Source of the DNA: a virus
DNA length: 64,000 nt
IMG/VR virus record: IMGVR_UViG_3300033407_000002
Coordinates: 1-64,000 of that record
Strand: one strand, 5' to 3'
The translations under genes were made by a program, and so were the position numbers. Positions within the stretch are counted from its first letter, which is position 1; every line of letters starts with the position of its first letter. A model generated the notes under the pieces. That model saw nothing but the letters and a program-made list of their open reading frames with translations, ran no database searches and had not been told where the DNA came from. This document shows positions 23,018 through 47,860 of the stretch, in pieces.

Positions 23018-24240
23018 AATGGCAAACGCATTTGCTGAAGTCGCTTCTTTTGCAGTTCGGTATACGCCTCGCATATCTCGCACCCAATCCAGTCCCGACC
23101 CAGATCCTGCGCGACTTGTGCCGTGGTTCCCGATCCCAAGAAGGGGTCAAGTACGCGACCTCTCCGTGTTGCCCCGCCACACTGACAAGCTGCATGGAAG
23201 CCGCGGTCGATGTAACTAGTGACGTGCCGCTCCGCATCGCGATTGCCGACTACCTGCTCGTAGCGGTCGGACTTGTACTCATCTGAATGCTGCAGATCGC
23301 GGTCTTGAAACTGCCGAGAATTTCTTCCGGGCAGTTTTGTTTTCTCGCCTGGCCTGGTTGGCCTGCGCTCCGAGTCAACGACTCGTACCCATGGCTTTCC
23401 GCATTCGAGGCAGACGGTTTCGGGGCATCCTGCGAGAATGCAGGGTTCTACGAGCTTTCGAGGAAACGCGGCAAAGTGCTGGCCACTATAACTTTCTGCA
23501 GGAATGGTCCAAACCGATCTCTTGTTTCGGCGGTCGACTAAGTCAGTGACATGATCCTGGAAGTGGGCATTCTGCTTCGACTTGGTCTTTCCATTGCGTG
23601 TGTTACTGAGCGCCTTGGGTGCCTGCGCCCGTCCGCGACTATGCGTATTCTCGCTGCACGGCTCGCTGATAGCGTACCAGTCGTAGAAATATTTCCGCCG
23701 CTTCGCCAGAAGAAACAGATACTCATGGGCAGTCGTACAGCGATCCCGGACCGACGATGGCATCGGTGAGGGTTTTTCCCAGATTATGTCCTGTCTCAAA
23801 ACCCAACCAGCATCCTGGAGAGCAAACGCAAGCCTCCATGGAATGCCAAGCATGTTTTTTGGTGCGCGACCTGTGTTTTTCGACGGTCCCGTAATCGCTT
23901 TTCCAAGCGGTGCCGCTTTACATTGCCCGCCAGAAATTGTGCTAAGCCTTGCATTGCCTTCCTGGCCTCGAGATTGAGCGCCCCAACTCCCTGAATAAGT
24001 TTCTCCGATGTTTAGCCATAGCGTGCCATGGTCCGCAAGAACCCGCTTCACCTCAGAAAACACGCTGGCCAGTTCGGCGATGTATTCACCTGGCGTTTGC
24101 TCCAAGCCGATCTGTCCGTCTGCGCCGTAGTCTCTCAGGCCCCAGTAAGGAGGACTCGTGATACAACAGTCGATCGAACTGTCGGGGATCGACTTGAGAG
24201 TCTGCCGATTGTCTCCGATGAGGACTTGATTCAACTCCAT
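23014..24240 (-). CDS. DNA methyltransferase (N6-adenine/N4-cytosine, beta class)
   Basis: Motif IV ITSPPYWGLRDYG near the N-terminus and motif I VLDPFLGSGTTAQVA near the C-terminus; 408 aa. Confidence 0.85.
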   Translation of the reverse strand: MELNQVLIGDNRQTLKSIPDSSIDCCITSPPYWGLRDYGADGQIGLEQTPGEYIAELASVFSEVKRVLADHGTLWLNIGETYSGSWGAQSRGQEGNARLSTISGGQCKAAPLGKAITGPSKNTGRAPKNMLGIPWRLAFALQDAGWVLRQDIIWEKPSPMPSSVRDRCTTAHEYLFLLAKRRKYFYDWYAISEPCSENTHSRGRAQAPKALSNTRNGKTKSKQNAHFQDHVTDLVDRRNKRSVWTIPAESYSGQHFAAFPRKLVEPCILAGCPETVCLECGKPWVRVVDSERRPTRPGEKTKLPGRNSRQFQDRDLQHSDEYKSDRYEQVVGNRDAERHVTSYIDRGFHAACQCGGATRRGRVLDPFLGSGTTAQVAQDLGRDWIGCEICEAYTELQKKRLQQMRLPL

Positions 24241-27200
24241 TAGACCGCCGTCCTTAACTGCAACTGCCTCTGACCCATCGACTCCAGTAGACTCTTTGCG
24301 AGAGCAAGCCCCATGGACTCGCCGGCATCGCTAAGCGAACAAAGACCGTCACTAGAAAAACGGCCGTCAATTGATTCCGATGCCTGGATTTTCGCACCCA
24401 TCAACTCAACCAACCGCTGCTCCATACACGCCTCGTAGTGCATGTGGATTACCTTGCACGGCTCCGACTGTCCGATCCGGTACGCCCGGCCACTGGCCTG
24501 CCGCGTCGTCGAAGTCGATAGCGAATTCTGCCACCAAACTAAAGTCGCGAAGTTGTACTTATATCCGCCGTTCCCATCCCGCAGAAACAAATCGAGCCCC
24601 GTTTCGACCAGACGGGCATTGGAGATAATCACATCGCACCCCGGCGCATTACGAGCTATCCACTCCTCACGCTTCTTGGTCGACACTGCTTGGCTCCTGA
24701 GTACCTTGACCCGTAAACCGACCCTCTCTAGTAAGGACTCCAAGCGGACCTGAACATCACGCTTTTGCGTCATTTCTACAAAGATCCATACCTGACGGCC
24801 GGCCCGCGATTCAGCCCGGACCGTTTCTATCAACTCCCGCTCCTTGGGCCGTATCGTCGTCCGGCTCAAATTGCCCGGCGTTACCAAGTCGCACCACTCC
24901 CCGAACTCATCCTGATACCCGATCGAATCCCAGCCGTATGGAAAATCCGGATATCCGATTAAGCAGTGAACGAGCCGGCTCAAAAGGCTCATATCCTTCT
25001 TCTCCATCGCTACCTTTATCGCCCCCGCCATAGCCCGCTCGAGCTTGCGATACTCGGCCGCTTGCTCGCAGTCCATCGCCACTGACCGGACTGTCTTCTC
25101 CATCGATGGCAGTTCATCCGATACGTCAGCCAGACTGAGGAAAACTGACTTATCCAAGACGTGATCGCCGAACAAACTGGGCATGATTCCCGGCCGTACC
25201 TTGACAGTCGTTCGGCCCTTGCTGCCGCGACTGGTACGGTTCGATTCACCGAGCTTAGAGCGGACCGTCTTCTCCAGCCGGCCGTAGCGGCGAACAAACT
25301 CGGTCGTCTGACTGTAACTAAATCCGAGAGTCTTCAGTGTGGCTGGACTGCTCCGCCATAACAGATGGAAGATTGAATGCGCGTAGCCGTTTAAGTACGT
25401 TCCGGTGAGCGGCAGAACGTGGTCGACCGACTTTACTAATTTCGATGCTGAGCATGCTATCGCACTGGAGGCGGCACACGCAGTGTGCACTTCGTCGAGT
25501 ATCGCGTACTGGAACATCCCCCGCATTTTCTTGTGTATGTAGGTCGCGACCGGCCACCTGTCTAGTTCATGCGTCCACTGCCATAGCGGCGACTTGCACC
25601 CGGCGCAGTCGTGCTTCGTCTTCCCGAGGTCCTCGAGCGTCAGGAACTCGTAGCCGTCATCGCAGTCCTCGTTCCTCTTTCGCGGCTGGATATGACAGAC
25701 GGCGCAGTGCAGCGAACTACCGGTTACCGACTCCACTACGGCCGGCTCCCATGGCGTACCGAGCTTGGCCATCGACTCGCTGACAATGTAATACTCGGAG
25801 CCAGCCGGACTCACCCTGGAGCGTGCTAGTGGTATCAACTCGCGGTAGCGCTCGATGATTCTTGCAGTAGCCGCCGGCACGATAGCCGATATCTCGCGAG
25901 ACCACTTGGCTACCAGGTGCGGCGGACACATCACGATCGCTCGGTAGGGCCGGCAGGCAGCATGCGCATGGACGGCTAGCGTTGAAACAGAGGTGTTGTG
26001 AGTGACAATGCAGTCGTCCGTGACATAGAGATTCCTTTTAGTGCTTACCTTAATGCACTGGCATTCAGCCCAGCCAGCGTCTTGGATGTCACGAATGGAT
26101 CTTGCGGGAAGATACTTGGAGTTTGGCTTCCACTCCTTCTTTTTCCAAGACGATCTCGACGGGCTGATCGTGCTTGGCAGGCTTACGTTGATCCTGTAGT
26201 TCAACTGCCCTTCTTTTCTTTCGCCCTTGTACGAGAAGTACGGAACTCTCTGTGCGATAGAAGCACGACCGCCGATACTCCATACCAAAAATCGCACACC
26301 TTGAGCTAACTGCGGCGATACTGTGCTGTATTCGATGCCGCTTTTATAAAAGAACCCGTCCGTATCCAGCAGCCCCTGGAGCAACTGAACCCGTTGCTTC
26401 CAACTAGCGAACATATAGTCATGTGGAATGAACTTACTTTCAGCCCGCTTTTCCATGAGCCCAAGTGATTTGATTGCTCGAACTACTTCGTTTTTCTGCC
26501 CCTTCGTCTTACTGACAATACCGTAGTTCGCCCGCTCAGGATCTCTCCCTCGCTTCCTGAAAGTCGCTGTGCTTGGCAGCACCAATTCGATTAACTTCAG
26601 AATGTCGGGGTAAAACGTCGTGAAAGAAACAGTGTGATTTGTAAAGTGACCGTCACCAAGCAGCACTCCCAGCAAATACGGATCAAGTGGCAGTTTCTTG
26701 TCCTCTCCCCCTAGATTCAACAAAGGCAGGAAGAACTGACTCTGCAATGCGTAGCCCCCCTTGCCTCGCTTCAGAACACACTTGCCCTGCATTTGCCCTG
26801 CCGAGAGAACCTTGCCACCGGTCCCCCTGAATCGCTCGTTCGGCGTACGAACTAGCCACAAATGCTCATGGCAGCACCGCGTCTTTCCGCCGTCACTGGT
26901 GGTCACTTCAACAATCTGCTTAACGCCCTGGGGAAACACCCCCTCCACAAGCCCGACTCCACCATCAGGATCCACAACTTGGTCGCCGACCTTCATTTCG
27001 CCCATCAACTTCCATCCGGTCGGAGTCAACACCTTACAATCCAGCGGCTGTGCTTTTCCAGCCCCGATCTCGCCGATAAGATTGACGGTCCTTTGACCGG
27101 CGCGCATGGCTTTTACCATCGCGCAGATGGCATCGTACTGACCTCCGATCGGACGGCGGTTCTCAGGCGATAACTCGATAGACCGATCCCCTCGACGATG

Positions 27201-27278
27201 AAGCGGATCAAAGATGCTCTCTATCTTGGCCGATAACTCGTCGGCGTACTCAAGCATGTACTCTGCTACTGCACTCAC
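24240..27278 (-). CDS. SNF2/DEAD-like helicase, interrupted by an intein in the Walker A motif
   Basis: GTG start. GEIGAGK | intein | TSVSTL restores GxGKT. Also DExH (AILDEVH) and SNF2 motif VI (QASGRAYRIGQSEPCKV). The spliced product would be 659 aa. Confidence 0.85.
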   Translation of the reverse strand: MSAVAEYMLEYADELSAKIESIFDPLHRRGDRSIELSPENRRPIGGQYDAICAMVKAMRAGQRTVNLIGEIGAGKAQPLDCKVLTPTGWKLMGEMKVGDQVVDPDGGVGLVEGVFPQGVKQIVEVTTSDGGKTRCCHEHLWLVRTPNERFRGTGGKVLSAGQMQGKCVLKRGKGGYALQSQFFLPLLNLGGEDKKLPLDPYLLGVLLGDGHFTNHTVSFTTFYPDILKLIELVLPSTATFRKRGRDPERANYGIVSKTKGQKNEVVRAIKSLGLMEKRAESKFIPHDYMFASWKQRVQLLQGLLDTDGFFYKSGIEYSTVSPQLAQGVRFLVWSIGGRASIAQRVPYFSYKGERKEGQLNYRINVSLPSTISPSRSSWKKKEWKPNSKYLPARSIRDIQDAGWAECQCIKVSTKRNLYVTDDCIVTHNTSVSTLAVHAHAACRPYRAIVMCPPHLVAKWSREISAIVPAATARIIERYRELIPLARSRVSPAGSEYYIVSESMAKLGTPWEPAVVESVTGSSLHCAVCHIQPRKRNEDCDDGYEFLTLEDLGKTKHDCAGCKSPLWQWTHELDRWPVATYIHKKMRGMFQYAILDEVHTACAASSAIACSASKLVKSVDHVLPLTGTYLNGYAHSIFHLLWRSSPATLKTLGFSYSQTTEFVRRYGRLEKTVRSKLGESNRTSRGSKGRTTVKVRPGIMPSLFGDHVLDKSVFLSLADVSDELPSMEKTVRSVAMDCEQAAEYRKLERAMAGAIKVAMEKKDMSLLSRLVHCLIGYPDFPYGWDSIGYQDEFGEWCDLVTPGNLSRTTIRPKERELIETVRAESRAGRQVWIFVEMTQKRDVQVRLESLLERVGLRVKVLRSQAVSTKKREEWIARNAPGCDVIISNARLVETGLDLFLRDGNGGYKYNFATLVWWQNSLSTSTTRQASGRAYRIGQSEPCKVIHMHYEACMEQRLVELMGAKIQASESIDGRFSSDGLCSLSDAGESMGLALAKSLLESMGQRQLQLRTAV
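25995..27053 (-). mobile_element. intein (353 aa) with LAGLIDADG homing endonuclease; Ala1 / WCT class-3-type
   Basis: Residues 76-428 of the helicase. Block A is AQPLDCKVLTPTGW (Ala at position 1). Block B is ...CCHEHLW (Trp at B:12). LAGLIDADG motifs are LLGVLLGDGH and LLQGLLDTDGF. Block F is ECQCIKVS (Cys at F:4). Block G is IVTHN|T (Thr at G:5; HN with Thr at +1). Confidence 0.8.
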
Positions 27279-28960: not shown

Positions 28961-28991
28961 GTCAGACCGAAAATCAACTCAAGTATGTCGC
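28961..28991 (-). promoter_or_regulatory. promoter-like motif GCGACA-N18-GTC (copy 7)
   Basis: Minus strand: GCGACA TACTTGAGTTG ATTTTCG GTCTGAC. The predicted start site coincides with the beginning of the open frame of the methyltransferase. Confidence 0.5.
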
Positions 28992-29386
28992 GCCCAGCCG
29001 GATTGCACCGCCTTTAATGCCTCTTCAAATGCTTCGCGGTGATACGGATACTGCGTGTCGAACAACCAGAACGGGCGATCCCGCTGGGAGGTCAGTACGA
29101 AATCAATACACCAATCGCTCACGGCATTCGGCCAAACATGAGAATGGTAGGCGTTGACGAGCTTCCGCATCGTCTCTACGTCGCCGGACACCTTCAGCAG
29201 CCCATCCTCTTCCGTCTCCATGTCAAGCTTTGGAAAGTAGCTCAACTCATTGATTGGCCTGATCGTTCCGTCAGAGTCCAATCCGACAGGCTCCAGTTCA
29301 GGTCCGCTTGGCGGTCGCAATGCCGACAAGCCCAGAAGGCCCGACGCTGCATTGATTAGAAACGTCCGTCGCTCGTACATGCTCAC
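28979..29386 (-). CDS. secreted protein with twin-arginine (Tat) signal
   Basis: N-terminus MSMYERRTFLINAASGLLGLSAL matches S/T-R-R-x-F-L followed by a hydrophobic region. Confidence 0.6.
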   Translation of the reverse strand: MSMYERRTFLINAASGLLGLSALRPPSGPELEPVGLDSDGTIRPINELSYFPKLDMETEEDGLLKVSGDVETMRKLVNAYHSHVWPNAVSDWCIDFVLTSQRDRPFWLFDTQYPYHREAFEEALKAVQSGWARHT

Positions 29387-29396
29387 CTCGTTGCAG

Positions 29397-29558
29397 TCAA
29401 AGCCGTCCCGTCAGAAGCAATATCAACAGAATGATCAGGAGCACTCCGACAAGGCCACCGGGACCGTATCCCCAGTTTCGGCTATGCGGCCAAGTTGGCA
29501 ACGCCCCGAGCAGCAACAGGATCAGAATGATTATGAGAATGGTTGAAAGTGAGATCAT
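29397..29558 (-). CDS. DUF3309-family small membrane protein (53 aa, not in ORF track)
   Basis: Own translation: MISLSTILIIILILLLLGALPTWPHSRNWGYGPGGLVGVLLIILLILLLTGRL. GALPTWP...WGYGP is the family signature. ATGA overlap with the upstream stop. Confidence 0.65.
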   Translation of the reverse strand: MISLSTILIIILILLLLGALPTWPHSRNWGYGPGGLVGVLLIILLILLLTGRL

Positions 29559-29980
29559 GGCTTGTCTCCTTGAGTGGCTCTGAGATACATCAATTCCAGT
29601 AAGCCGGTAATAGCTTCTCTAGCCGCATCGTCAACATCGCCTTTACTTGTTTCGACCGAGCCGATCCAGCGACGTTCAGCTTCACAAGGCACTTCTAAAC
29701 CAAAGAGTTTTCCCGGTAACTTGTTCTGAAACATATACGAGAGTCTCTCTATGTCGGGAGAACCCACAAATCGCAGGCTTCCTCCGAGCGGCGTTAATCG
29801 CATCGCTGCAAACGCGGGCAGTTTATGCCAGCCGTCCCACTTCATGTTGTCCCATTGGTCACGGGACAGGTTTTCCTCAGCGAGAAACCGATCTACGGCC
29901 TTAGCCCGAATGCCGGCTACCATCTCCACGAACGACCGTTTTTCATGTGACATGGTTGCGTCGGCGGAAAGGTGGTTCAT
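29555..29980 (-). CDS. hypothetical protein
   Basis: 141-aa track ORF. Confidence 0.5.
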   Translation of the reverse strand: MNHLSADATMSHEKRSFVEMVAGIRAKAVDRFLAEENLSRDQWDNMKWDGWHKLPAFAAMRLTPLGGSLRFVGSPDIERLSYMFQNKLPGKLFGLEVPCEAERRWIGSVETSKGDVDDAAREAITGLLELMYLRATQGDKP

Positions 29981-29986
29981 GGTTGC

Positions 29987-30295
29987 TCAGCGACCTACGT
30001 AAGGACCAAGTGGCGTCTTGTAACCCACGCCACCAACAGCCTGATGATTCGTGCGAGAGAAATAGAACCCAACAATGAGAAACATTACGTTGACTAAATA
30101 AATGTTTTCTATTTTCATTATCGTCGTTGCGACAACACTGAATGTAATTGTCAATGCAATGAGAGCTTGTGTGTACTCCCAAACCAAACTGACATTACGC
30201 TGTCCCTTTGTGACGCGGTTTTCTTCCGCAGTTGTCGTTGGAGGAAGTGTAGTCTTATCTTCTGAGTCGATGATAGTTTCAGGCGTATCTGTCAT
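29987..30295 (-). CDS. hypothetical membrane protein (2 TM, holin-like topology)
   Basis: 102 aa. TM segments ALIALTITFSVVATTI and VNVMFLIVGFYF. Lies in a locally AT-richer stretch. Confidence 0.5.
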   Translation of the reverse strand: MTDTPETIIDSEDKTTLPPTTTAEENRVTKGQRNVSLVWEYTQALIALTITFSVVATTIMKIENIYLVNVMFLIVGFYFSRTNHQAVGGVGYKTPLGPYVGR

Positions 30296-30681
30296 TGGTT
30301 CTCTGGAAGCCTAGGGACTTCCTCTACTGGATTAACTAAAGGTTCGGGAACAACTAAAGGTTCTTGCTCTCCATTATCTTCACGCTCAGGTAATGTTGAA
30401 GACACAACTTCATTCCGTGCTTCTATCTCTTCGATGGTTTCTCTTGTAAAAAATCGTCGAGGTATAACGACATTTGGATTCGCTTTAAAGAACTGATGCC
30501 ACTTTCGTTCACTTAATTCTTGAGCTGCCGTCAGTGCTTCGCGATGTGCGATGATATCGAGCCGCGTTGCATGAGTGATGTAGCCAGTGATCCCGATCAC
30601 CGACAGTACGATCACGAATACGATCGCGTCAACGATCGGATTCTTCTTCCACCTCGAAACCCAACCCTCTGAATATGGCAC
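30292..30681 (-). CDS. hypothetical N-terminally anchored membrane protein
   Basis: 129 aa. TM segment IVDAIVFVIVLSVIGITGYI followed by an acidic/Pro-rich tail. Confidence 0.5.
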   Translation of the reverse strand: MPYSEGWVSRWKKNPIVDAIVFVIVLSVIGITGYITHATRLDIIAHREALTAAQELSERKWHQFFKANPNVVIPRRFFTRETIEEIEARNEVVSSTLPEREDNGEQEPLVVPEPLVNPVEEVPRLPENQ

Positions 30682-31000
30682 GCAAAACTTTCTTTATTAC
30701 TGTTTTAGCGAACTCCGTGACCTCGAGCGTGAAGTAACCAACGAATACCGCCACGGCCAAATAATAGATAGGACCAACAATGGAATCAGGACTGCGGCCA
30801 ATCCACAAAGCAACGCCTCCAAAACTGACAATTCCAGACGAAAGTATGCTACCGAGGCTGCGATGGAAACCAGGATAAGTTTGATCGCGAAGCAAGCGAG
30901 CCAATCCACCCAGGCAGCCGAACAGAAGCACCGCTGCGTAGTAAACGATTTCCGTTCTTTCAAATTCCACTTCATCGCATCCCGGCCTTCGGAGTTGCAT
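30629..31000 (-). CDS. hypothetical multi-pass membrane protein (holin-like)
   Basis: 123 aa with 3 predicted TM segments. The alternative frame 30697..31020 was judged less likely. Confidence 0.45.
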   Translation of the reverse strand: MQLRRPGCDEVEFERTEIVYYAAVLLFGCLGGLARLLRDQTYPGFHRSLGSILSSGIVSFGGVALWIGRSPDSIVGPIYYLAVAVFVGYFTLEVTEFAKTVIKKVLRAIFRGLGFEVEEESDR

Positions 31001-31003
31001 CTA

Positions 31004-31120
31004 TCACAAGCACGCGGCAACCACCGCCACGATCACAGCACCGACGAGCACGAGCACAATCGCACCAGTTGCCCCAGCGATGGTTCGCACGTCGTCCTCG
31101 TCATCAAAATCCGCGTTCAC
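31004..31120 (-). CDS. small single-TM protein (38 aa, not in ORF track)
   Basis: Own translation from a GTG (GTGA overlap with the upstream stop): VNADFDDEDDVRTIAGATGAIVLVLVGAVIVAVVAACL. Confidence 0.35.
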   Translation of the reverse strand: MNADFDDEDDVRTIAGATGAIVLVLVGAVIVAVVAACL

Positions 31121-31488
31121 TTCCAAACTCGCTTCCGATTTTCGAACGGGTAAACTTGCCGATTGTCACTCTCTGGATTTTGTGTCGTCCATGTTTCCAC
31201 GATGGTATCAGAGTAAATCACCAGTCGCTTTTCACGCTCTGGGTAATGGTCGTAAGCAGGAGGAGCGTAGTGGAAGTACACGGCATCATGGAAGATGGTT
31301 ATGTCTCTCGCTCTCCGGTAGTCCTCGCAAACATAAGTTCCACATTCAGTTCGCCGCCAGCAAATTACCTGTGTAAACTGCGGGAAGCCCACCTCGGTAG
31401 CTAGGTGATTTATCTCGACTGCGTCACAGGACGCAGGTTCCTTTCCCTCGCTGGAAAACAGAGCTAGAAGTAAAATCAGCGATGGCAT
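31117..31488 (-). CDS. secreted protein (signal peptide)
   Basis: 123 aa; N-terminus MPSLILLLALFSS. Confidence 0.5.
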   Translation of the reverse strand: MPSLILLLALFSSEGKEPASCDAVEINHLATEVGFPQFTQVICWRRTECGTYVCEDYRRARDITIFHDAVYFHYAPPAYDHYPEREKRLVIYSDTIVETWTTQNPESDNRQVYPFENRKRVWK

Positions 31489-31530
31489 CGAACTAACCTC
31501 CGCAGCCCAGTCGCTCCGTACACTGCACGC

Positions 31531-31776
31531 TTATCGAACCAACCTCCGCACGAAACTCCTTACCGGCTGCCGAGCAACAATCCGCTGCCGAGTCGCCTGA
31601 ATCGTCGCGGTTACTCTCGTCGCCACAACAGACCGACTGACAGCCGATGACCTGGCAACTACCGGAGCCACCGCGCGAACCCGTATCGAACATTCGCCAT
31701 TGGCGCACTGAGCGTCCGCCTGCGAACAAGTGAAGCTGCAAGCCACCAACGCCGCCAAACAACCTAAACGTCGCAT
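31531..31776 (-). CDS. small secreted Arg/Val-rich protein
   Basis: Track ORF trimmed to ATG 31776 (MRRLGCLAALVACSFTCSQADAQC...), with AGGAA 8 nt upstream. Confidence 0.45.
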   Translation of the reverse strand: MRRLGCLAALVACSFTCSQADAQCANGECSIRVRAVAPVVARSSAVSRSVVATRVTATIQATRQRIVARQPVRSFVRRLVR

Positions 31777-31815
31777 TACCATTTCCTTCCTAGATCCCAG
31801 AACTCCAAAACACCA

Positions 31816-31846
31816 ACCCGACGACCGCAAAAAACACTCAAGTCGC
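31816..31846 (-). promoter_or_regulatory. promoter-like motif GCGACt-N18-GTC (copy 8, weaker)
   Basis: Minus strand: GCGACT TGAGTGTTTTT TGCGGTC GTCGGGT; 40 nt upstream of ATG 31776. Confidence 0.4.
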
Positions 31847-32446
31847 CAGCTCGTAAAACCCTTCAAACCATATCACAGGATCGGACAATGTCACCGGCTC
31901 GTTCAGCATCGCCGCTTCCATGCTCCCGAATAATTTCAAAAGCATTTCGATCATTGCGATAATCTGCGGCATCTTCTCAATGAGTAAATCGATCAACTCC
32001 CGTAGCTTATCGGGGTCTATCTGCGCATCGACGGAGGCAACTGACATACCACCTTCGTTCACGAAATCTAGGCATTGCTCCTCCACCGCTGAGCGTATCG
32101 CTGGCCTCACTGCCATTGTCAATCGCGACAGGAGCTTCTTTCCAAATGGCTCGTTGCTCTCCCGAATCGCTTGCTGCACCGCACCTGAGAACGTCATTCG
32201 ATTCCGGCCGAATATCGCGGTCGCATCCACATCCGTCGTCGTCTCCGCAGATTCAGCAGGCTCGGATCGAGCAGATAAAAGAGCCACTTGCTTCCTGTTG
32301 GCTTCGCATTGCGGACAAGGACATTCGACATGCCGAGCGACCCTGTCAGCTTGCACCCCCTGAGCGTCAACCGCCTGAGCCTTAACCGACTCGCCAAGCG
32401 AACCGATCAGTAAACACGCGCACAGAACACCTATCAAACCACGCAT
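31838..32446 (-). CDS. secreted protein (signal peptide)
   Basis: 202 aa; MRGLIGVLCACLLIGSLGESVKAQA; CPCPQC motif after the signal peptide. Confidence 0.55.
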   Translation of the reverse strand: MRGLIGVLCACLLIGSLGESVKAQAVDAQGVQADRVARHVECPCPQCEANRKQVALLSARSEPAESAETTTDVDATAIFGRNRMTFSGAVQQAIRESNEPFGKKLLSRLTMAVRPAIRSAVEEQCLDFVNEGGMSVASVDAQIDPDKLRELIDLLIEKMPQIIAMIEMLLKLFGSMEAAMLNEPVTLSDPVIWFEGFYELAT

Positions 32447-32471
32447 GAAAAACCCCTTTGATTTTGTTGGA

Positions 32472-33182
32472 TCACTCTTTAACCGCTAAAAAATAAGTAA
32501 GCGTCTGGCCATCAACCTGCCTCTGAACGCGGCTCGCGTCCACATGACTCGGCAGCCGATGCCCCAGCGAAACCACTCTGGTCCCTGACTTGATTTTCGG
32601 CCAAGCGGCTTCAATCAATTCCGGGAATAGGAACATCGTCACAACGTCTGCATCAAATGCCGGCGTGTCCAGAATATCGCGCTCCAGCACGAGCACCCTA
32701 TCCGTCACGCCAGCCTCTATCGCATTGGCTCTTGCGAGTTTCGCTGACTCGGGATTCAACTCCAGACCAACCGCCTGTACCCCATAGCGCACCGCCGCTG
32801 CAATCAGAATCCGTCCATCGCCGCAACCCAAATCAACCAGCAACTCTCCCGGCTCGGGCGACACAATCGCCAACATCGCATCGACGGCACCCTTGGGTGA
32901 AGGTTCCAGTCTCGTATCGGCCAGCGGATTGTGTACCGGCTTCACGGCCTCGGGAAGCCGAGTCTCTCGCCGCTCGGCCTTCGTCACAACCGGCGTAAAC
33001 AACCACTGTTGTCTCTGCGCGGCCAACATCGTTTCGATCCTGTTGCACATCTCGCACCACGGATTCGAGCAGACTCGCGACGTATAAGTACCTCTCCCGT
33101 ATCGCACCGACTGGGCGTGGCCGACGCTGGCGCAGTCTCCCGCGATCACGAGAGCGATCAGTGCCGACAGGAACCTATTCAT
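32472..33182 (-). CDS. class I SAM-dependent methyltransferase carrying an N-terminal signal peptide
   Basis: MNRFLSALIALVIAGDCASVGHAQ, then a Cys motif CSNPWCEMC, then SAM motif I LLVDLGCGDGRI and the post-I segment VGLELN. Confidence 0.7.
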   Translation of the reverse strand: MNRFLSALIALVIAGDCASVGHAQSVRYGRGTYTSRVCSNPWCEMCNRIETMLAAQRQQWLFTPVVTKAERRETRLPEAVKPVHNPLADTRLEPSPKGAVDAMLAIVSPEPGELLVDLGCGDGRILIAAAVRYGVQAVGLELNPESAKLARANAIEAGVTDRVLVLERDILDTPAFDADVVTMFLFPELIEAAWPKIKSGTRVVSLGHRLPSHVDASRVQRQVDGQTLTYFLAVKE

Positions 33183-33364
33183 TCTCCTCCTCCCGCTTCC
33201 CGCTCATCGTCCTGTAGTCGCGAAAACCGATCGAACAATAATGCCACGCGCACGACGAGCAATGCCGGAAACGCGATGGCCAAAACGGAATAAGCCACGG
33301 CACCAACGGCCAGCGACACGAGTGCGATTTTAATCATCTGGCAAGCTCCCAGTCCCAGCCCCAA
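33179..33364 (-). CDS. small membrane protein
   Basis: 61-aa track ORF with 2 hydrophobic segments. The start is uncertain (alternative ATG 33337). Confidence 0.4.
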   Translation of the reverse strand: MGLGLGACQMIKIALVSLAVGAVAYSVLAIAFPALLVVRVALLFDRFSRLQDDEREAGGGE

Positions 33365-33368
33365 ATGT

Positions 33369-33602
33369 TCATAAAACCCTACTACCTACCGCCGCCGCGA
33401 CTTCGACTACATTCAGAAACCAAAATAAATACCACTGCCACTTGCGTTCCTGATGCCACCATGCAACAGCTAACCCACCCATAAACAAATGGGCTACGTC
33501 AACATAAACATGTAACCACGAAAAGGCTTCTGGCTCCACTTCAAACGCTAGCCATATTCGCGATGCAGCCAAGACTAATCCGAAGGCTATTGTTGGTACC
33601 AT
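33369..33602 (-). CDS. small membrane protein
   Basis: Track ORF 33369..33698 trimmed to ATG 33602 (MVPTIAFGLVLAASRIW...); TGATG overlap with the upstream stop. Confidence 0.45.
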   Translation of the reverse strand: MVPTIAFGLVLAASRIWLAFEVEPEAFSWLHVYVDVAHLFMGGLAVAWWHQERKWQWYLFWFLNVVEVAAAVGSRVL

Positions 33603-34348
33603 CACAGCCCCTTTGCAGCCGCGCGCATGATCGCCAAATACGGCCCCGTCTCGGTCGGATTCACCTGATTGATCGCCGCCGCAATGTGCCGTCTCCAACC
33701 CTCAAGCCAATCCGTACTTGGCACCGTGCGCGTTAGCATCACCCGCTCTATCTCCGCGACTATCGCCTGCTTGGCCTCCGCAAGATTCGGACACAAGCCG
33801 CGACTGCACAACTCTTCGAGCCTTTCGCACGTTCCATCGATTGCAGTCTTCAGTCTCGCGGCAGTGGTCGGATCGTTCAGTTCCGCCGATCTCTCTGAAC
33901 TGATCTTTGTTACCCAGTCGAGTTCGGGCACTGGTGGCGGAGGCGGAGGAGGAGGTGGCGGTGGCGGTGGCGGATCAGGCTTACCTTCGATCTCGACCGT
34001 AATCCAGATCGGCAGCCCCTCCCCGCGTTGCGACACGTAAAACCGCTGGCCAGATTCCCCGCGAATCAGAAACTGACCAGGCCGGAATTCCTCGTGCACG
34101 GTCGGCGGAAACGGAGCTGCAACATCATGCACCTCGATCCACTTGACGCCTGGCAACGCATCCAGCAGCACCCCGCGACCCTGCTTCTCCGATAGCTCCT
34201 CGACGAGAATCACCACGCCATCACCATCGGGCGTTACCGTGGCATGCCTGGCGGACAGGAACGTAACCTGATACTGTCCTTCGACCCCAAAAGCCGATGC
34301 AAACAGCGATGCAACCAGAACAATCGCAGAGAAGCCGACTCGTATCAT
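33602..34348 (-). CDS. secreted protein with a 14-residue poly-proline linker
   Basis: Trimmed to ATG 34348 (ATGA overlap with the protease stop). Signal peptide MIRVGFSAIVLVASLFASAFG. The P14 tract is encoded at 33932-33973. Confidence 0.6.
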   Translation of the reverse strand: MIRVGFSAIVLVASLFASAFGVEGQYQVTFLSARHATVTPDGDGVVILVEELSEKQGRGVLLDALPGVKWIEVHDVAAPFPPTVHEEFRPGQFLIRGESGQRFYVSQRGEGLPIWITVEIEGKPDPPPPPPPPPPPPPPVPELDWVTKISSERSAELNDPTTAARLKTAIDGTCERLEELCSRGLCPNLAEAKQAIVAEIERVMLTRTVPSTDWLEGWRRHIAAAINQVNPTETGPYLAIMRAAAKGL

Positions 34349-35289
34349 GTGCCACTTCCCCCGGTAGTTTTTGCAAGAATCCAAGTGATGATATTTTTCG
34401 ACACGATCACTACCCCGTCTCCGAAACGCGGATCGCGACCAACCGGCCCCGCGTCCTTAAGGAACTCTTCGGAGCGCAAGAACGCGACCAGCTCGCGCAT
34501 GCCCATGTAGACGTCCATTCCGAGCTGCTTCATCGCTTGCCGAAGCAACAGCAAATCTCCAGCGGCTGTAGGTGACGCCATGCTCGTTCCTGACATCAGC
34601 ACAAGATCGTTATTCAGGCCGCACGAAATGATTCCACCGCCACCTGCGGCTAAGTCAATCGCCGGTCCACCACTGGAAAATCCCGACAAAGAACCGTCTT
34701 GGTTCGTCGAACTGACCGCTACATTCGTCGGACTGATCGCCGGCGCAATCACCGTATTGGATCCGTTGAACCCCGAATTACCACCCGAAAACAACAGCCA
34801 CTTGCCGGACTCAACGATGCGTTTCATCGCCCTCTCTGTTCCGGAATCAACGGACTGCCCGCCGCCCCAGGAACAGTTCACTACATCGCCTTCTTGATCC
34901 GCTGCCCAGTCCAGACCGGCAATCGTGTTGGAACCGCTGCCGTTATCCCCGAGTACCTTACCGACCTTGATTCCAGCTCCGGGAGCACCACCAATTCCAT
35001 TCCGACCGGCCATACTGCCGATGGTATGAACGCCATGGGAGTGCCTATCCGTGATGTTCGACGAACCGCCGCCGGTGAAATTCTTGCCGTCCAGCGGCTC
35101 GGGCAACGACGGATGAGCTTTCCATCCCGTATCGAGACTAATGCCGATACATCCGCGCCCATCGATCCCCGCATCCCACACCGGTTGCATCAGCGCCGGC
35201 GGCCGGGTCCATGGCGTTGCGCCCTGCATGACCATGACGTTCGTGTGAACGTACGTATCCGGCGGGACCCCGTAAATCGGCTGAGTCAT
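34345..35289 (-). CDS. subtilisin-like serine protease (peptidase S8)
   Basis: Catalytic triad motifs GISLDTG (Asp), HSHGVHTIGSMAG (His) and GTSMASPTAAG (Ser), plus the oxyanion-region NCSWGGG; 314 aa. No obvious signal peptide. Confidence 0.85.
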   Translation of the reverse strand: MTQPIYGVPPDTYVHTNVMVMQGATPWTRPPALMQPVWDAGIDGRGCIGISLDTGWKAHPSLPEPLDGKNFTGGGSSNITDRHSHGVHTIGSMAGRNGIGGAPGAGIKVGKVLGDNGSGSNTIAGLDWAADQEGDVVNCSWGGGQSVDSGTERAMKRIVESGKWLLFSGGNSGFNGSNTVIAPAISPTNVAVSSTNQDGSLSGFSSGGPAIDLAAGGGGIISCGLNNDLVLMSGTSMASPTAAGDLLLLRQAMKQLGMDVYMGMRELVAFLRSEEFLKDAGPVGRDPRFGDGVVIVSKNIITWILAKTTGGSGT

Positions 35290-35320: not shown

Positions 35321-35677
35321 CTACGAAAGCTTTTCCAGCAGCAACCGAATCAACTTCTGTAGCAGTGCCACAGCCACCGGATTCATTGCCGCCGATGCTG
35401 CAACCTCATCCGCTCGCGGCGCGTATAGCACCGACTCCAGAGCCGCCGAACATCCCTCGATCGTGTCGGGCGTTGCCGTCGCTACTGCCTCCATTGCCGT
35501 CACCGGCTCCTCTGGCGTCTGCTCTAGATACTCGCCGAGACTCCCCAGCGCGCAGCCGCTGTGCTTGAGGACATCGGCCTTGCGAGCGAGAAAGTCGCCC
35601 GACCTGGCGATCTTGATCAGTTCCAGCGCGCAACTGACCTGCAGAACGGCCGCAAACTTACAGGGGCACTCGGTCAT
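35321..35677 (-). CDS. hypothetical protein
   Basis: 118-aa track ORF. Confidence 0.5.
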   Translation of the reverse strand: MTECPCKFAAVLQVSCALELIKIARSGDFLARKADVLKHSGCALGSLGEYLEQTPEEPVTAMEAVATATPDTIEGCSAALESVLYAPRADEVAASAAMNPVAVALLQKLIRLLLEKLS

Positions 35678-41105: not shown

Positions 41106-42610
41106 TTCATTACCCTCCATACGATAATCTCACGAGTCAGAACCAAACAACGCTTATTCTCCTTGGACCACTCGACCATCTGAGCGTTGCATTGCTGCGA
41201 CTCATACGGGACCGAGTAACGCATGTCGACGGGTAGCTTGACTAGCCGCAACATATCGCCGATATGGTCGGTAAACTGACGCCCCGGCGCATTCCATTGA
41301 GTCGGCTGGATAATGAGAGCGATGTAAGCGTCAGCAACGCGAGACCGCTTTAGCTTCTCCGCGTACTGCTTGATGAGGGATGAAAGCGAATCGTTAAACG
41401 CTTCCAATTTCATATTCGACAAGTCGGTCGCGTCCTTGCTGTACCTGCCTTCCGCTTGCTTCCAGTACGGTGGGTCGAGGTAGACCAACCGCACGTCCTT
41501 CCATTGCGGCGGCGACAAGACGCCTTCCGTCACATCGTGCGTCCGAAGGTCGTAGCGAATGTCAACCGGCTTACGGTCGGAAACCAAGTAGCGCCGCAGG
41601 CGAGACTTGCACAGGTCGATTGCCGATCCGCCGCCAGCGAACGGATCGATCACAACGTCGAATGGCTTAGTGTAGAGGTACAACAGATTGTCGAGCCAAG
41701 TGATTTCCGTATTCCCGAAGTGGCTCACTTGGTCGCTGCGGTCCTGTTGCTTCCAGATGTTGTAGACGGGTGGCCTGAAGTGCTCGTCAACGTGGTTGGC
41801 GCGGACCAACAGTCGCTTGTCGAGCTTGTAGACGCCAAGGCTGTTGGAGTCTCCGTCGTCATCGTCCTCGAATTCCATGTCATCCACTGGAGTTTCAGTG
41901 AGTGACCTAGTTTCCGACAACTCTTCGCTTTCGCCACCGGTGGCGTTTCCGAAGAACTGTAGTGTTTTGAGGAACTCACTAACCGGACCGGCAGCATACC
42001 CTACCGCCTCGGCAATCTCCCCCTGCGTGTAGCAGGCCAGCCACATATCGAACGCGGTCTGCCGAAGTTCGGCCTTCAGGTCTTTGTCGATGCGGCTTGT
42101 GGCATCTTTAATGTAACTGATGCTCCGGCTGTAGTCCGCCGCCATTTCCCGCTTCAATTCGGCGCGGCCCGCCTGGTCGAGCTTGTCCATCTTCGCTCGG
42201 TATTCGTCGCGAATCAGCTTACCTAGTTCGCGCTCGGTCTGCGGCAATCCATGCCGAAAGTTAGAACGTGCGGCCTTCCGGCGGATCGCATACATGTCCA
42301 CCGTCCCATCGGAGAGAACGAATCCGCTGGTATCCAGAATCTCCGCGTCGATTGCCTGGAGCTTCTGTTTCTTATGAGCCATCCACCTATGCCAACCGTC
42401 GAGCAAAATATTCTCGTGATTGACGAGGATCGGAGGGAAGCCACCACCTTCTATCGACAAGGCGTATTCGTTAACCTTCTCGGGGCTCTGCGACTCCGAC
42501 CGCGTGTAATACGACTTGTCAAAAACTACGTCATCGACGCCGAGCGTCTTAGTTACAGCCACTGATATATTTCTCCATGCTTTGCGTCCATACCGAACCG
42601 CCATCACCAC
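41102..42610 (-). CDS. ParB-like nuclease domain fused to a DNA N6-adenine methyltransferase
   Basis: ParB N-terminal motif FPPILVNHENILLDGWHRW. MTase motif I VVIDPFAGGGSAID and motif IV VYLDPPYW. The exact start is uncertain (GTG 42610, ATG 42604 or a later GTG). Confidence 0.8.
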   Translation of the reverse strand: MVMAVRYGRKAWRNISVAVTKTLGVDDVVFDKSYYTRSESQSPEKVNEYALSIEGGGFPPILVNHENILLDGWHRWMAHKKQKLQAIDAEILDTSGFVLSDGTVDMYAIRRKAARSNFRHGLPQTERELGKLIRDEYRAKMDKLDQAGRAELKREMAADYSRSISYIKDATSRIDKDLKAELRQTAFDMWLACYTQGEIAEAVGYAAGPVSEFLKTLQFFGNATGGESEELSETRSLTETPVDDMEFEDDDDGDSNSLGVYKLDKRLLVRANHVDEHFRPPVYNIWKQQDRSDQVSHFGNTEITWLDNLLYLYTKPFDVVIDPFAGGGSAIDLCKSRLRRYLVSDRKPVDIRYDLRTHDVTEGVLSPPQWKDVRLVYLDPPYWKQAEGRYSKDATDLSNMKLEAFNDSLSSLIKQYAEKLKRSRVADAYIALIIQPTQWNAPGRQFTDHIGDMLRLVKLPVDMRYSVPYESQQCNAQMVEWSKENKRCLVLTREIIVWRVMK

Positions 42611-42641
42611 CTAGGACCGAATGACTCGCCGCCCATGTCGT
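42611..42641 (-). promoter_or_regulatory. promoter-like motif aCGACA-N18-GTC (copy 10)
   Basis: Minus strand: ACGACA TGGGCGGCGAG TCATTCG GTCCTAG, abutting the ParB-MTase start (leaderless or a later start). Confidence 0.45.
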
Positions 42642-43060
42642 CACTTTTCTGATTTTCCCGCCACTACATCCCTTGGCGATAGATTCAAATGCACCATCAA
42701 CACCGCATCCTGACGGCTCGCATTGAACGCCTTTTCGAAAATAACCACCGCAAGAGACGCGGCAGCCTGACGACTGAACTGAACCTCGTCATCCCCGCGA
42801 ATCCCCGCTAGATCCGCGATCGCCAGCAAGCCGACATCCTTTGCGGACAGCCGCGCGACCGCGCCCAAATGCTCCTCCAGCCAGTGGTGCGATTCGTGAA
42901 AAACGTAGTAGCCGCGCTCATCGGGTTCGCCGCACAGTGCTTGCAAAACGTCCTGGACCTTGAGCCGGCCAGTGGGCCACGTATCTGAACTGAACGCATA
43001 CCCGCCGCTGTCCGTGTGTATGATCAGACTGCCGTAAACCCATGCCGGCGAAATTAGCAT
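42641..43060 (-). CDS. hypothetical protein
   Basis: Track ORF 42641..43090 trimmed to ATG 43060 (MLISPAWVYG...), preceded by GGAGGA at 8 nt. The earlier ATG lies inside the promoter motif. Confidence 0.5.
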   Translation of the reverse strand: MLISPAWVYGSLIIHTDSGGYAFSSDTWPTGRLKVQDVLQALCGEPDERGYYVFHESHHWLEEHLGAVARLSAKDVGLLAIADLAGIRGDDEVQFSRQAAASLAVVIFEKAFNASRQDAVLMVHLNLSPRDVVAGKSEK

Positions 43061-43078
43061 CGTTGTGTCCTCCGGTGG

Positions 43079-43109
43079 CATAGACCGCAAAACGGCGAGA
43101 GTGTGTCAC
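43079..43109 (-). promoter_or_regulatory. promoter-like motif GtGACA-N18-GTC (copy 11)
   Basis: Minus strand: GTGACA CACTCTCGCCG TTTTGCG GTCTATG; 19 nt upstream of ATG 43060. Confidence 0.5.
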
Positions 43110-43555
43110 TACTGGCGACGAAGCGATTCGCGAATCACAGTCTGAAGGATGTCTTGCTCCTCCTGCTCAGCCAGTCCCTTGGCTTGCAGTTCTGCGATTT
43201 TCTGACTGCGAGCCCTTTGTTCATGGATCTCGCACATCCGGCTTGTCAATATTTGCAGTCGAAACGGCGTGTAAATCTGCGAGTACGGATTCTTGGCCCT
43301 GGCTTGTTCGGCCAATGTTGCCACCAATTCCTTAAGCGGGTCGTCGATCGCTTTCAATACGTCGTCGAGTTCCAGCGACTGACCGCTAAACCACAACTGC
43401 TGGTACGCATCCAGTATCTGCCTTGCTGGATCGCTATCCAGCCACTCCAGACACACTTGCTCCAGTGCGACGTGAGCGACACGCGGCAATACGATAATCA
43501 ACTCCAAAAGCTCCCGCTCAATCGACGATAGTTCGCTTAGACGTGCGTTTTGCAT
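43109..43555 (-). CDS. primase C-terminal (DnaB-binding) domain-like protein
   Basis: Trimmed to ATG 43555. ERELLELIIVLPRVAHVALEQV...ARQILDAY resembles the DnaG helicase-interaction domain, and it sits directly after dnaB. Confidence 0.45.
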   Translation of the reverse strand: MQNARLSELSSIERELLELIIVLPRVAHVALEQVCLEWLDSDPARQILDAYQQLWFSGQSLELDDVLKAIDDPLKELVATLAEQARAKNPYSQIYTPFRLQILTSRMCEIHEQRARSQKIAELQAKGLAEQEEQDILQTVIRESLRRQ

Positions 43556-43562
43556 CTTTAAG

Positions 43563-44882: not shown

Positions 44883-44891
44883 CGGCTAGTC

Positions 44892-45512
44892 CTATCTATT
44901 CCGGGTGCGGAAACTGGGCCACTTGCACAGAAACCGAACCGAACCGTGATTGAGCCGGTCCGCGACCTGGAGGCCGATACGTCGATCGAAGTCCATCAGG
45001 TCGTGAGCGTTGGCGGTAACGATAGTCGGCTTCTTATGCCGATACCGATAGTCGACAATGAGATACAGAAACCGCATTTGCCAATCGGTCAGATTCCCGC
45101 TGTTCTCCGCAAGTCCCTTAGGCGGTAGCGGGTCACTAAGCCAGAGTAAGTCGGGCTGGGTGTACCGCCGCGCTGTCTGATACTCGGTATCGCGACTGCC
45201 CATCGCATCCCTGGCTGCGGCGAACAGTTCCTCTCCGTTCTCCCATGCCACGCTGAACCCCGCCTTAAAAACGGCGCTGGCCACGCAGAAGCTCAGGTGA
45301 TCCTTGCCGGTACCCATGGTTCCGATCAGCACGAGCCCACCGCCGCTTTCAATCATCGCCGCTGGATTCGCGGCAACCTCCCTTAGCTTGTCCACCAACA
45401 TGGCCTGCGCGGGCTCATCTCCAACTTGGTAATTGTCGAATGTCGCGCCCGACAACCTCGGACCGATGCGCTCGACTAATGACATCCACGCCGCTTTTTG
45501 AAACTGATCCAT
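44892..45512 (-). CDS. DnaC/IstB-like AAA+ helicase loader
   Basis: Trimmed to ATG 45512. Walker A LIGTMGTGKDHL and Walker B-like LLWLSDP. Confidence 0.65.
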   Translation of the reverse strand: MDQFQKAAWMSLVERIGPRLSGATFDNYQVGDEPAQAMLVDKLREVAANPAAMIESGGGLVLIGTMGTGKDHLSFCVASAVFKAGFSVAWENGEELFAAARDAMGSRDTEYQTARRYTQPDLLWLSDPLPPKGLAENSGNLTDWQMRFLYLIVDYRYRHKKPTIVTANAHDLMDFDRRIGLQVADRLNHGSVRFLCKWPSFRTRNR

Positions 45513-45522
45513 ACTTTGCCTT

Positions 45523-46692: not shown

Positions 46693-46743
46693 AGACTCCG
46701 GCGGATAGAGGTGGACAAGTGACGAGAAAAGCGGGTCTTCAAG

Positions 46744-47787: not shown

Positions 47788-47824
47788 GCCACTTCCCTTA
47801 GCTAGTTTCTCTGCTCACCACGAG

Positions 47825-47850: not shown

Positions 47851-47860
47851 AAACAGTCGA

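Follow-up and report, generated by a model that had tools for sequence, protein, structure and literature searches.

Intracellular subtilisins (ISPs) of Bacillus (PDB 7y6m, 7xr8, 2wv7, 2x8j) are S8 proteases of ~310-330 amino acids (aa) that carry neither a signal peptide nor an I9 prodomain and combine the true-subtilisin fold with a D/H/S triad and an oxyanion Asn. Mycosins, the subtilases of type VII secretion systems (T7SS), and LanP-type leader peptidases are S8 proteases that work in or at the membrane together with fixed partners. In phages, holin-endolysin-spanin cassettes have a signal-less enzyme at the head of a block of small membrane proteins near the packaging and structural genes, and Llp of T5 and Cor of T1, phi80 and N15 are exported proteins with a variable target-binding part, often encoded beside tail-fibre genes. 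Each of these systems bears some likeness to a phage locus in IMG/VR virus record IMGVR_UViG_3300033407_000002, positions 1 to 64,000 of which form the window analysed here (a 64-kb stretch; coordinates are window positions unless marked as contig or as a numbered related locus, L). In this locus a gene for an S8 subtilase without an export signal (g01) is followed by a gene for an exported partner (g02). The S8-g02 pair is a conserved membrane-spanning two-protein unit and the core of what an earlier note on the same DNA had described as an island of about 15 exported or membrane proteins. With the neighbouring gene u1 this core is widespread in uncultured phages, and no prior description of it was found in the literature searched. 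The core genes and g06, an apparent cousin of u1, are:

g01, 34345..35289, minus strand: S8 subtilase, 314 aa, without signal peptide and without I9 prodomain
g02, 33602..34348, minus strand: exported partner, 248 aa; its ATG overlaps the S8 stop codon (ATGA)
u1, 35321..35677, minus strand: 118-aa cytoplasmic Cys-containing protein (c1 family) with a C-terminal amphipathic helix; usually part of the core
g06, 31838..32446, minus strand: exported 202-aa protein (c24 family); signal peptide followed by CPCPQC, amphipathic helix at the C-terminus

The g01 product matches PF00082, the sole Pfam domain found in it, at 102.7 bits (cutoff 21.8). Its catalytic codons lie at 35131-35133 (D53), 35035-35037 (H85), 34777-34779 (N171, the oxyanion Asn) and 34582-34584 (S236), and all four residues are invariant in 73 aligned homologues. 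These features and the absence of a hydrophobic N-terminus bear out the earlier description of an S8 protease with an intact triad and no signal peptide. A homologue search returned about 86 proteins, nearly all of 305-325 aa and without signal peptide, and the family has in common an N-terminal motif, PI[YF]G[IV]PPD, and a C-terminal extension, FLKDAGxxGRDPRxGxG, followed by a terminal helix. In the AlphaFold2 (AF2) model of g01 the predicted local distance difference test score (pLDDT) is 93.3 overall and ~80 in the PI[YF]G[IV]PPD segment, which is ordered. Foldseek aligned this model with subtilisin Carlsberg and BPN' at template-modelling (TM) scores of 0.85-0.88, the longest alignments being to ISP precursors, and the top PDB sequence matches, ranking above secreted subtilisins, are the intracellular serine proteases 7y6m (1e-28) and 7xr8. 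The short proline-containing N-terminal extension of g01, PIYGVPPD, recalls the LIPY/F inhibitory segment of ISPs. From its sequence and predicted structure, g01 is judged to be an intact subtilisin-fold protease without export signal, active-looking and cytoplasmic.

Unlike the ISPs, to which it is only ~25-28% identical, g01 is phage-encoded, has a conserved C-terminal extension, and is always paired with an exported protein, to which it is sometimes fused via a signal peptide. Its best NCBIfam match is to mycosin (2e-24), at 86 bits far under the cutoff of 279; the surroundings of g01 contain no T7SS or lanthipeptide genes, and mycosins are exported and anchored C-terminally on the outer face of the membrane, a topology opposite to that of g01. 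Two distant S8 members have an export signal of their own, a Tat-like RRNLL in L235 and an N-terminal transmembrane segment in L250, which means that the enzyme can work outside the cytoplasm. In L235 (9863-10864) the Tat-like N-terminus, MINRRNLLMAGASAIL, replaces the usual PIYGIPPD extension, and a g02-like gene comes next. IMG/VR holds 190 relatives of g01. In deposited phage genomes the only match of the family is a Moorella phage protease, 33% identical; when genome contigs were scanned with the S8 alignment, the matches listed included only generic subtilases (Streptomyces, Bacillus and others), 30-38% identical and without the N-terminal motif, and a metagenome scan with the same alignment gave mostly distant matches.

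The exported partner, g02, consists of a signal peptide (residues 1-21), an Ig-like beta-sandwich (~25-119), a linker of 14 prolines (126-139), a five-helix bundle (144-247) and, within the latter, a loop C181-SRGL-C186-P (CxxGxCP); the P14 linker of a secreted protein had been pointed out earlier, and the proline run is where it was said to be. Relatives of g02 start with Sec signal peptides of the classical kind, in which the n-region is basic and the site of AxA type. Their N-domain comes in at least two unrelated sequence types, and the helical domain is the conserved part. The AF2 model has a pLDDT of 78.7 overall and of 84-97 in the helical domain. Foldseek searches of this model against PDB and BFVD gave no match below 1e-3, the N-domain showing only generic similarity to fibronectin type III (FN3), immunoglobulin (Ig) or carbohydrate-binding module (CBM) folds, which argues against a hidden muramidase; this was the outcome of the check for a cryptic muramidase or amidase that the earlier note had proposed. 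By signal peptide and model, g02 is predicted to be a Sec-type exported protein and not an enzyme, the model having no enzyme-like fold. Searched as a single sequence, g02 yielded no homologue, poly-proline words having probably crowded the candidate list; a linker-free alignment query returned 12 proteins, and an exhaustive profile search retrieved 447 representative clusters. The match of g02 to phrog_24527, 'virion structural protein', is confined to the proline run, and this identity was set aside.

In all gene maps read, S8 is followed by g02 on the same strand. A g02 homologue was found with a hidden Markov model (HMM) in 74 of 84 S8-bearing phage loci, and by phmmer in 65 of 83; in about 74 of 84 the two genes are direct or near neighbours. 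Five further contigs that were mapped have a gene for a protein of 238-261 aa after S8, directly or past one small gene, and four of five directly adjacent S8/g02 pairs, as called by a public gene caller, overlap by 4-10 nt. In L003, the first relative found, the S8 open reading frame (ORF) continues via a hydrophobic segment into a g02-like domain. Such fusions of S8, an internal signal peptide and g02 occur in at least five clusters (50% identity), with Pfam S8 confirmed in the N-terminal half, and in every fusion read the junction keeps a hydrophobic signal-peptide-like segment ending in an AxA|Q-type site. This junction sets the topology of the unit, with the protease inside and g02 outside.

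The S8-g02 pair is absent from 50,697 deposited phage genomes, and no cultured phage carries it; the island as a whole likewise gave no DNA match to deposited phages. Where the pair does occur, which is in a wide range of phage backbones, its surroundings are late or structural genes, and in all locus groups it adjoins terminase, portal, capsid or tail-fibre genes. In the window, the island lies 1.7 kb upstream of the gene for a TerL-like packaging ATPase.

The third core gene, u1, was left out of the island as previously bounded. An HMM of its family, c1, matches 46 S8 loci and does so each time beside S8; the proteins have conserved Cys residues and no signal peptide or transmembrane segment. 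The c24 family, to which g06 belongs, matches 14 S8 loci by HMM, usually directly upstream of S8 and in the place of c1, a few of these loci carrying c1 too. Profile comparison of u1 with g06/c24 gave a probability of 72% (E 3e-5) across the C-terminal helix. Either u1/c1 or its exported cousin g06/c24 is usually found beside S8-g02.

The remaining genes of the island are listed below.

g03, 33369..33602, minus strand: 77-aa protein with several transmembrane segments
g04, 33179..33337, minus strand: 52-aa hydrophobic peptide with one or two hydrophobic segments; lineage-specific, no homologue in 83 loci
g05, 32472..33182, minus strand: 236-aa methyltransferase with an N-terminal signal peptide or anchor and CSNPWCEMC
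g07, 31531..31782, minus strand: small exported protein, net charge +12, with CANGEC
g08, 31117..31488, minus strand: 123-aa protein with a weak signal-like N-terminus lacking a basic n-region, and 4 Cys; lineage-specific
g09, 31004..31126, minus strand: possible 40-aa tail-anchored peptide with a TTG start; doubtful
g10, 30629..31000, minus strand: protein with three transmembrane segments and a charged C-terminus (holin-like architecture); probable start GTG 30970
g11, 30292..30681, minus strand: 129-aa protein with an N-terminal transmembrane segment and a charged helical domain; in a low-GC patch
g12, 29987..30295, minus strand: 102-aa membrane protein
g13, 29555..29980, minus strand: 141-aa soluble protein without transmembrane segment; lineage-specific cargo
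g14, 29397..29558, minus strand: DUF3309 (PF11752) peptide with two transmembrane segments, 53 aa
g15, 28979..29386, minus strand: protein of 133-135 aa with a Tat-like RRTFL N-terminus; lineage-specific

All 15 ORFs of the earlier island are present on the minus strand between 28979 and 35289, at the places given for them, although g07, g09 and g11 were missed by the public gene caller. Hydropathy analysis indicated signal peptides in g02, g05, g06 and g07 and transmembrane segments in g03, g04, g09, g10 (three), g11, g12 and g14 (two), and neither in g01, g13 and u1; overall, 11 or 12 of the 14 non-S8 ORFs have a signal peptide or a transmembrane segment. The claimed concentration of membrane and exported proteins is real, with proteins containing hydrophobic segments accounting for 6 of 11 automatically called island genes vs 4 of 64 elsewhere in the window (Fisher p 4e-4). 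By a simple rule, classical signal-peptide N-termini are found in the 64 kb only in g02, g04, g05, g06 and g07 and in one 51-aa plus-strand ORF that is probably spurious. The Cys motifs CPCPQC (g06), CANGEC (g07) and CSNPWCEMC (g05) are present as they had been quoted.

Other parts of that description hold less well. Near-total translational coupling through ATGA, GTGA or TGATG overlaps had been proposed; overlaps of 1-4 nt do occur, but at 5 of the 14 junctions only, the others being two larger overlaps that hang on doubtful starts and gaps of 3-55 nt. The part at 29990-31500 described as AT-rich contains a narrower patch, at ~29.8-30.8 kb, with a GC fraction of 0.43-0.49, whereas 30.8-31.5 kb is at 0.52-0.53; against a background of 0.55-0.60 this dip (~29800-30800) spans g11, g12 and the 3' end of g10. 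An internal promoter had been placed at 31816-31846, where a sigma-70 scan finds no site; the scan yields 2 sites vs 3.8 expected, and neither promoters nor terminators exceed the number in shuffles. Above all, the 15 genes do not behave as one system. Outside the core (S8, g02, u1), co-conservation extends to g03, g05, g06, g10, g12 and g14 and stops short of g04, g08, g09, g11, g13 and g15; since these last six have no homologue in any related locus, the island is better described as a two-to-three-gene core with accessory genes.

The six genes that recur appear, from their distribution in related loci, to be accessory parts of the same system as S8-g02. Of these, g03, g05 and g06 each accompany S8-g02 in two further lineages; g10 does so in L233 and L257/L258, and g12 and g14 are confined to L011/L174. 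L011/L174, a phage of 32% GC (contigs of 107 kb and 179 kb), has a tight operon of g03, a g06-like gene, g12, DUF3309, c1, S8, g02, a g05-type methyltransferase, a thioredoxin and two small membrane proteins; L257/L258 (52% GC) has g03, a g06-like gene, a methyltransferase, S8, g02 and a weak g10-like match. The g03 protein is 64% identical to its counterpart in L011/L174 and 62% in L257/L258, and in both it lies in the same operon as S8-g02 or within 6 kb of it; g03 also occurs without S8, in L259 and L260. The signal-peptide S-adenosylmethionine (SAM) methyltransferase of the earlier note is g05, a class I enzyme behind a hydrophobic N-terminus. It scores above the cutoff for the general domain (Methyltransf_25, 36.8 vs 27; CMAS, 37.2 vs 27), and its best NCBIfam match, the protein-lysine N-methyltransferase NF041081 (3e-22), reaches 79 bits vs a cutoff of 200, too low for the equivalog; its orthologues adjoin S8-g02 in L011/L174 and L257/L258 and contain CxNxNC and CINGRC motifs. 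A g10 homologue follows g02 in L233 (E 2e-20) and the weak g10-like match in L257/L258 is beside g02, while the match of g10 to Pfam Phage_holin_3_3 (E 0.048) is not significant. The g12 orthologue, 41% identical, lies two genes upstream of S8 in the 32% GC phage L011/L174 and is the sole relative found. The DUF3309 assignment of g14 stands (Pfam E 1e-23), with a full-length match to PF11752 of 83.6 bits vs 22.3 (profile positions 1-50/50), and its orthologue is upstream of S8 in L011/L174.

The g07 product was accepted as a gene because it has a strong ribosome-binding site (AGGAAGGAA, before ATG 31782) and homologues; small CxNGxC proteins like it (c42, c61, c157) stand beside S8/g02 in 14 loci, and its LVAC could be a lipobox. 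The genes g04, g08, g09, g11, g13 and g15 look like lineage-specific cargo of a variable slot. No family match was found in Pfam, PHROG or NCBIfam for g08, nor in these or PADLOC for g13 and g15, and none of the three has a homologue in related loci. Support for g09 is positional only, a 48-aa transmembrane peptide preceding the g10 homologue in L233. For g11, for which no sequence homologue was found, the case for a gene is its 129-codon ORF and an architecture seen after g02 in many loci. The Tat signal attributed to g15 is a possibility: the protein does start with ERRTFL and its N-terminus, ERRTFLINAASGLLGLSAL, fits S/T-R-R-x-F-L-K, but by eye alone, and no AxA site is evident.

The slot itself is best seen in the close relatives L009 and L173, which share the flanks of the window locus, with YqaJ, RecT and DUF1643 upstream of S8-g02 and with DUF6094 and terminase after it. 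In the interval from g02 to DUF6094, L173 has only two small genes, L009 has the same two and a SIR2_2 gene, and the window has thirteen genes (g03-g15). The SIR2_2 gene of L009 (13035-14636) encodes a 533-aa protein with this defence-type domain.

Several themes recur around the core. One is a C-x-x-G-x-C motif, often CxNGxC with P or an aromatic residue next after it, which is found across module proteins: internally or C-terminally in g02, after the signal peptide of g06-like proteins, in the small basic secreted proteins like g07, and in the N-terminal part of g05-type methyltransferases. About 28 of the 150 best g02 relatives extend C-terminally into a stretch that has a CxxC domain (CPPC, CEPC, CVPC, CPYC) where sequences were read, and one of the g02 relatives, P0198, matches Pfam Thioredoxin_2/7 at 4.5e-11. 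A separate exported thioredoxin follows the module in L011/L174, and a thioredoxin also follows in L236/L242. In L011 the thioredoxin (12482-12865, WCAPC) comes right after the methyltransferase, and an Erv1/ALR sulfhydryl oxidase (5147-5581) is encoded 5 kb upstream of the module. In L236 (5878-6894; also in L242) the gene directly after g02 encodes an exported protein of 339 aa in which a trypsin-like protease (GDSGGP) is fused to a thioredoxin (WCAPC). Another theme is small transmembrane proteins, which make up 39% of small genes up to 4 genes downstream of g02 vs 14% elsewhere (odds ratio 3.9, with a p-value that is generous, the loci being related). The commonest downstream membrane type has a short N-terminus, one transmembrane segment and a charged coiled coil, often with one Cys, and g11 is built likewise. 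One family of this type, c4 (one transmembrane segment and a coiled coil, 27 loci), matches phrog_2658 'hol-like' at 4e-7.

The phage carrying the island is a temperate tailed phage, the temperate call being made because of an integrase at 51272-52291 on the plus strand. A ~100-kb contig that includes the window was assembled independently in at least two samples (ENA k141_4721222, 100,221 bp; Logan SRR10376053_132468, 100,110 bp). Nearly all window genes are on the minus strand, with few exceptions. In the direction of transcription, the island is preceded by the integrase, extracytoplasmic-function (ECF)-type sigma factors, DnaB, a methyltransferase, YqaJ/RecT, a RecU-like resolvase and an acidic 322-aa protein, and followed by a DUF6094 methyltransferase, a 1012-aa terminase-like ATPase, an N6/N4 methyltransferase and a portal protein fused to RNA-ligase and ADP-ribosyltransferase domains, an order that agrees with the earlier placement between a recombination and a DNA-modification module. 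The phage encodes three sigma-70 (ECF-like) factors (47221-47787, 47861-48397 and ~8300-8870, all on the minus strand). A conserved motif, GCGACACATT-N8-AATCCAGTCGGTA, is present on the minus strand in 5 copies (at 53437, 19030, 7585, 6411 and 3417), which are intergenic and stand upstream of structural genes, those for the portal and a capsid-like protein among them; the motif is possibly a late promoter for one of the ECF-type sigma factors of the phage.

Three functions had been offered for the island, namely envelope remodelling or exclusion, atypical lysis, and a protease-processed complex, and of these the gene context favours a late envelope or lysis role. We infer, tentatively, that the core may be a late, envelope-directed module for lysis or egress. 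The most economical reading, in which confidence is likewise limited, would be an endolysin-like logic whereby the enzyme builds up in the cytoplasm and gets through to its target only after a breach of the membrane. Coupled synthesis would put the protease at the inner face of the membrane during export of g02, and in the fusions the signal peptide of g02 would tether it there. Periplasmic g02 would bind an envelope component by its variable N-domain, and its Cys loop, with the associated reductase-type CxxC domains, would act on disulfides. Late in infection, small membrane proteins (g09-g12 here, the c4 type elsewhere) would permeabilise the membrane, the protease would reach the envelope, and once released it would cut the protein links of the envelope. 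Such a scheme would work as does an endolysin that a holin releases, except that the effector is a protease, and would supplement or replace a muralytic or spanin step. The complete proposal is a protease-based lysis or egress device in which a subtilase held by or co-made with a g02 adaptor is released by membrane proteins and cuts envelope protein tethers, thioredoxin domains and CxNGxC proteins open disulfides, and the endolysin or spanin step is replaced or complemented in a large group of uncultured phages, possibly of Bacteroidota; this proposal is rather unlikely to be correct.

The comparison with lysis cassettes supplies several likenesses. Class I holins have, as g10 does, three transmembrane segments and a charged C-terminus; i-spanins resemble g11 and the c4-type proteins in having an N-terminal transmembrane segment and a coiled coil, often with one Cys in the phage proteins; the LVAC of g07 is a lipobox-like site, and an o-spanin would be a lipoprotein; and endolysins, as the S8 family, include members with and without an export signal of their own. 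However, the island differs from these cassettes in that it has no muralytic domain, its enzyme is a protease and it has no significant match to a holin or spanin family. The obligatory exported partner of Ig-plus-helical build, g02, also has no counterpart in known lysis cassettes.

A number of observations weigh against a role in lysis or egress. No muralytic domain (glycosidase, amidase or peptidoglycan endopeptidase) was found in island proteins with Pfam, PHROG or NCBIfam, and we know of no S8 protease that cuts peptidoglycan. The holin-like and spanin-like assignments are made from architecture, and ten other proteins with one transmembrane segment and a coiled coil gave nothing informative against PHROG. 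In the fusions the protease would stay tethered on the cytoplasmic side, which suits a cytoplasmic target equally well as release, and a SAM-dependent methyltransferase behind a signal peptide, as in g05, is hard to fit with a periplasmic role. The slot between g02 and DUF6094 looks like a moron or defence hotspot, and the late-promoter-like motif has zero copies within or just before the island. The related loci, moreover, were read only within 10 kb of S8.

The search for lysis genes elsewhere bears on the same question. No island protein significantly matches endolysin, holin or spanin families in Pfam, PHROG or NCBIfam, and Pfam, PHROG and Foldseek searches bear out what had been stated earlier, that the island lacks any recognisable endolysin, spanin or capsid gene of standard type. 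Pfam lysozyme, amidase, peptidase, holin and spanin families are not on record for contig positions 1-41242 and 59617-100221 (~82% of the genome), and neither these nor any muralytic family was matched at E<1e-10 among 150 recurrent neighbour clusters of related loci. The apparent lack of standard lysis genes in the covered parts is suggestive but not conclusive, and the remaining 18 kb (contig 41243-59616) could hold a standard lysis cassette.

Superinfection exclusion or receptor masking, an unlikely reading, is an alternative that would explain the variable N-domain and the tail-fibre neighbours. Exported g02 would bind and block the receptor of the phage itself or another envelope component via its variable Ig-like domain and the accessory membrane proteins would remodel the envelope, serving the lysogen or keeping progeny from adsorbing to debris as do Llp and Cor. 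The temperate nature of the phage (integrase 51272-52291), the variable N-domain of g02 beside its conserved C-domain, the frequent adjacency of the pair to tail-fibre-like genes, the variable slot after g02 with its SIR2_2 gene in L009 and the low-GC patch inside the island would all suit such a function. However, it leaves unexplained why a conserved cytoplasmic protease with intact catalytic residues should be translationally coupled to g02 and repeatedly fused with it. The pair also lies inside structural-gene arrays of contigs with DNA polymerase and primase, an integrase being seen only in the window and L252, and PADLOC is blank for S8, g02, u1, g06, g08, g10, g11, g13 and g15. Llp and Cor are small lipoproteins that act alone, whereas g02 is no lipoprotein, has ~250 aa and is locked to a protease gene. 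A known defence system was set aside on similar evidence, there being no PADLOC match for the core and only generic methyltransferase models matching g05.

Less likely still is a protease-processed secreted complex, in which S8 would cleave the precursors of its exported neighbours (g02, g06, g07-like proteins, g05) or u1 at the cytoplasmic face and the mature assembly would be the point, much as with a leader peptidase or a viral polyprotein protease. Intracellular S8 leader peptidases are known from lanthipeptide clusters, S8-signal-peptide-g02 polyproteins exist, and the CxNGxC motif is common to g02, g05, g06-like and g07-like proteins; there are also weak NCBIfam matches of g05 to methyltransferases of ribosomally synthesised and post-translationally modified peptides (RiPPs) and of S8 to PatA/PatG, all far under cutoff. 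Yet the fusion junctions resemble ordinary sites for signal peptidase I, and cutting them would therefore require no protease from the phage; a cytoplasmic protease would also be unable to reach exported substrates once these had been translocated. Enzyme families of RiPP maturation were found in no locus, and a RiPP cluster as such was rejected because no such enzymes are nearby.

Virion morphogenesis, with S8 maturing capsid, tail-fibre or ejection proteins and g02/u1 as assembly or ejection proteins that insert hydrophobic N-termini at infection, is very improbable: no other protease family is on record in the covered genome parts, several groups have the pair surrounded by genes for capsid and tail fibre, and PHROG classes c13, encoded downstream in one group, as a virion structural protein, but the Sec signal peptides and periplasm-type CxxC domains of g02 relatives are unsuited to cytoplasmic assembly, S8 is not at the portal-protease-capsid position, the phrog_24527 match of g02 covers the proline run only, and a prohead protease was rejected for its wrong gene position and exported partner.

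Two leads point weakly to the hosts of these phages. Gln follows the predicted signal-peptide cleavage site in ~50% of 140 g02 relatives, and in g05, g06 and g07 of the window; one report (PMC5837995) describes such a bias as Bacteroidetes-specific. In most related loci Shine-Dalgarno motifs precede ~10-30% of genes, the gene starts being crude. Rare Shine-Dalgarno motifs are typical of Bacteroidota. Together the Gln bias and the rarity of these motifs fit Bacteroidota hosts, if weakly; the window has 57% GC.

All lysis systems known to us from tailed phages depend on a peptidoglycan hydrolase. If the pair does serve lysis or egress as proposed, phages of poorly studied hosts would breach the envelope with a protease and redox partners, and this would help to explain the frequent lack of standard lysis genes in metagenomic phage genomes. 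If exclusion or processing were the function instead, the pair would still be a new, testable two-protein unit spanning the inner membrane. The unit worth following is the S8-g02(-u1) core rather than the 15-gene island, its function being directly testable, and the S8-g02 pair can serve as an annotation marker for a block of ~3-11 genes that are now all labelled 'hypothetical'.

The portal protein (14852-18544, minus strand, 1230 aa) is an unusual fusion of Phage_portal with a 2',5'-RNA-ligase-like domain and ADPrib_exo_Tox, an ADP-ribosyltransferase toxin domain. The 1012-aa protein (24240-27278, minus strand) has PHROG matches to terminase large subunit and helicase, and its faint LAGLIDADG match suggests a possible intein; the RecT of L009 likewise has a LAGLIDADG match. 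To the left of the window, the same phage (L254; contig k141_4721222, 59617-80081) encodes a DnaJ-domain protein, a DNA polymerase III beta sliding clamp, an RNase T-like exonuclease and an HNH endonuclease.

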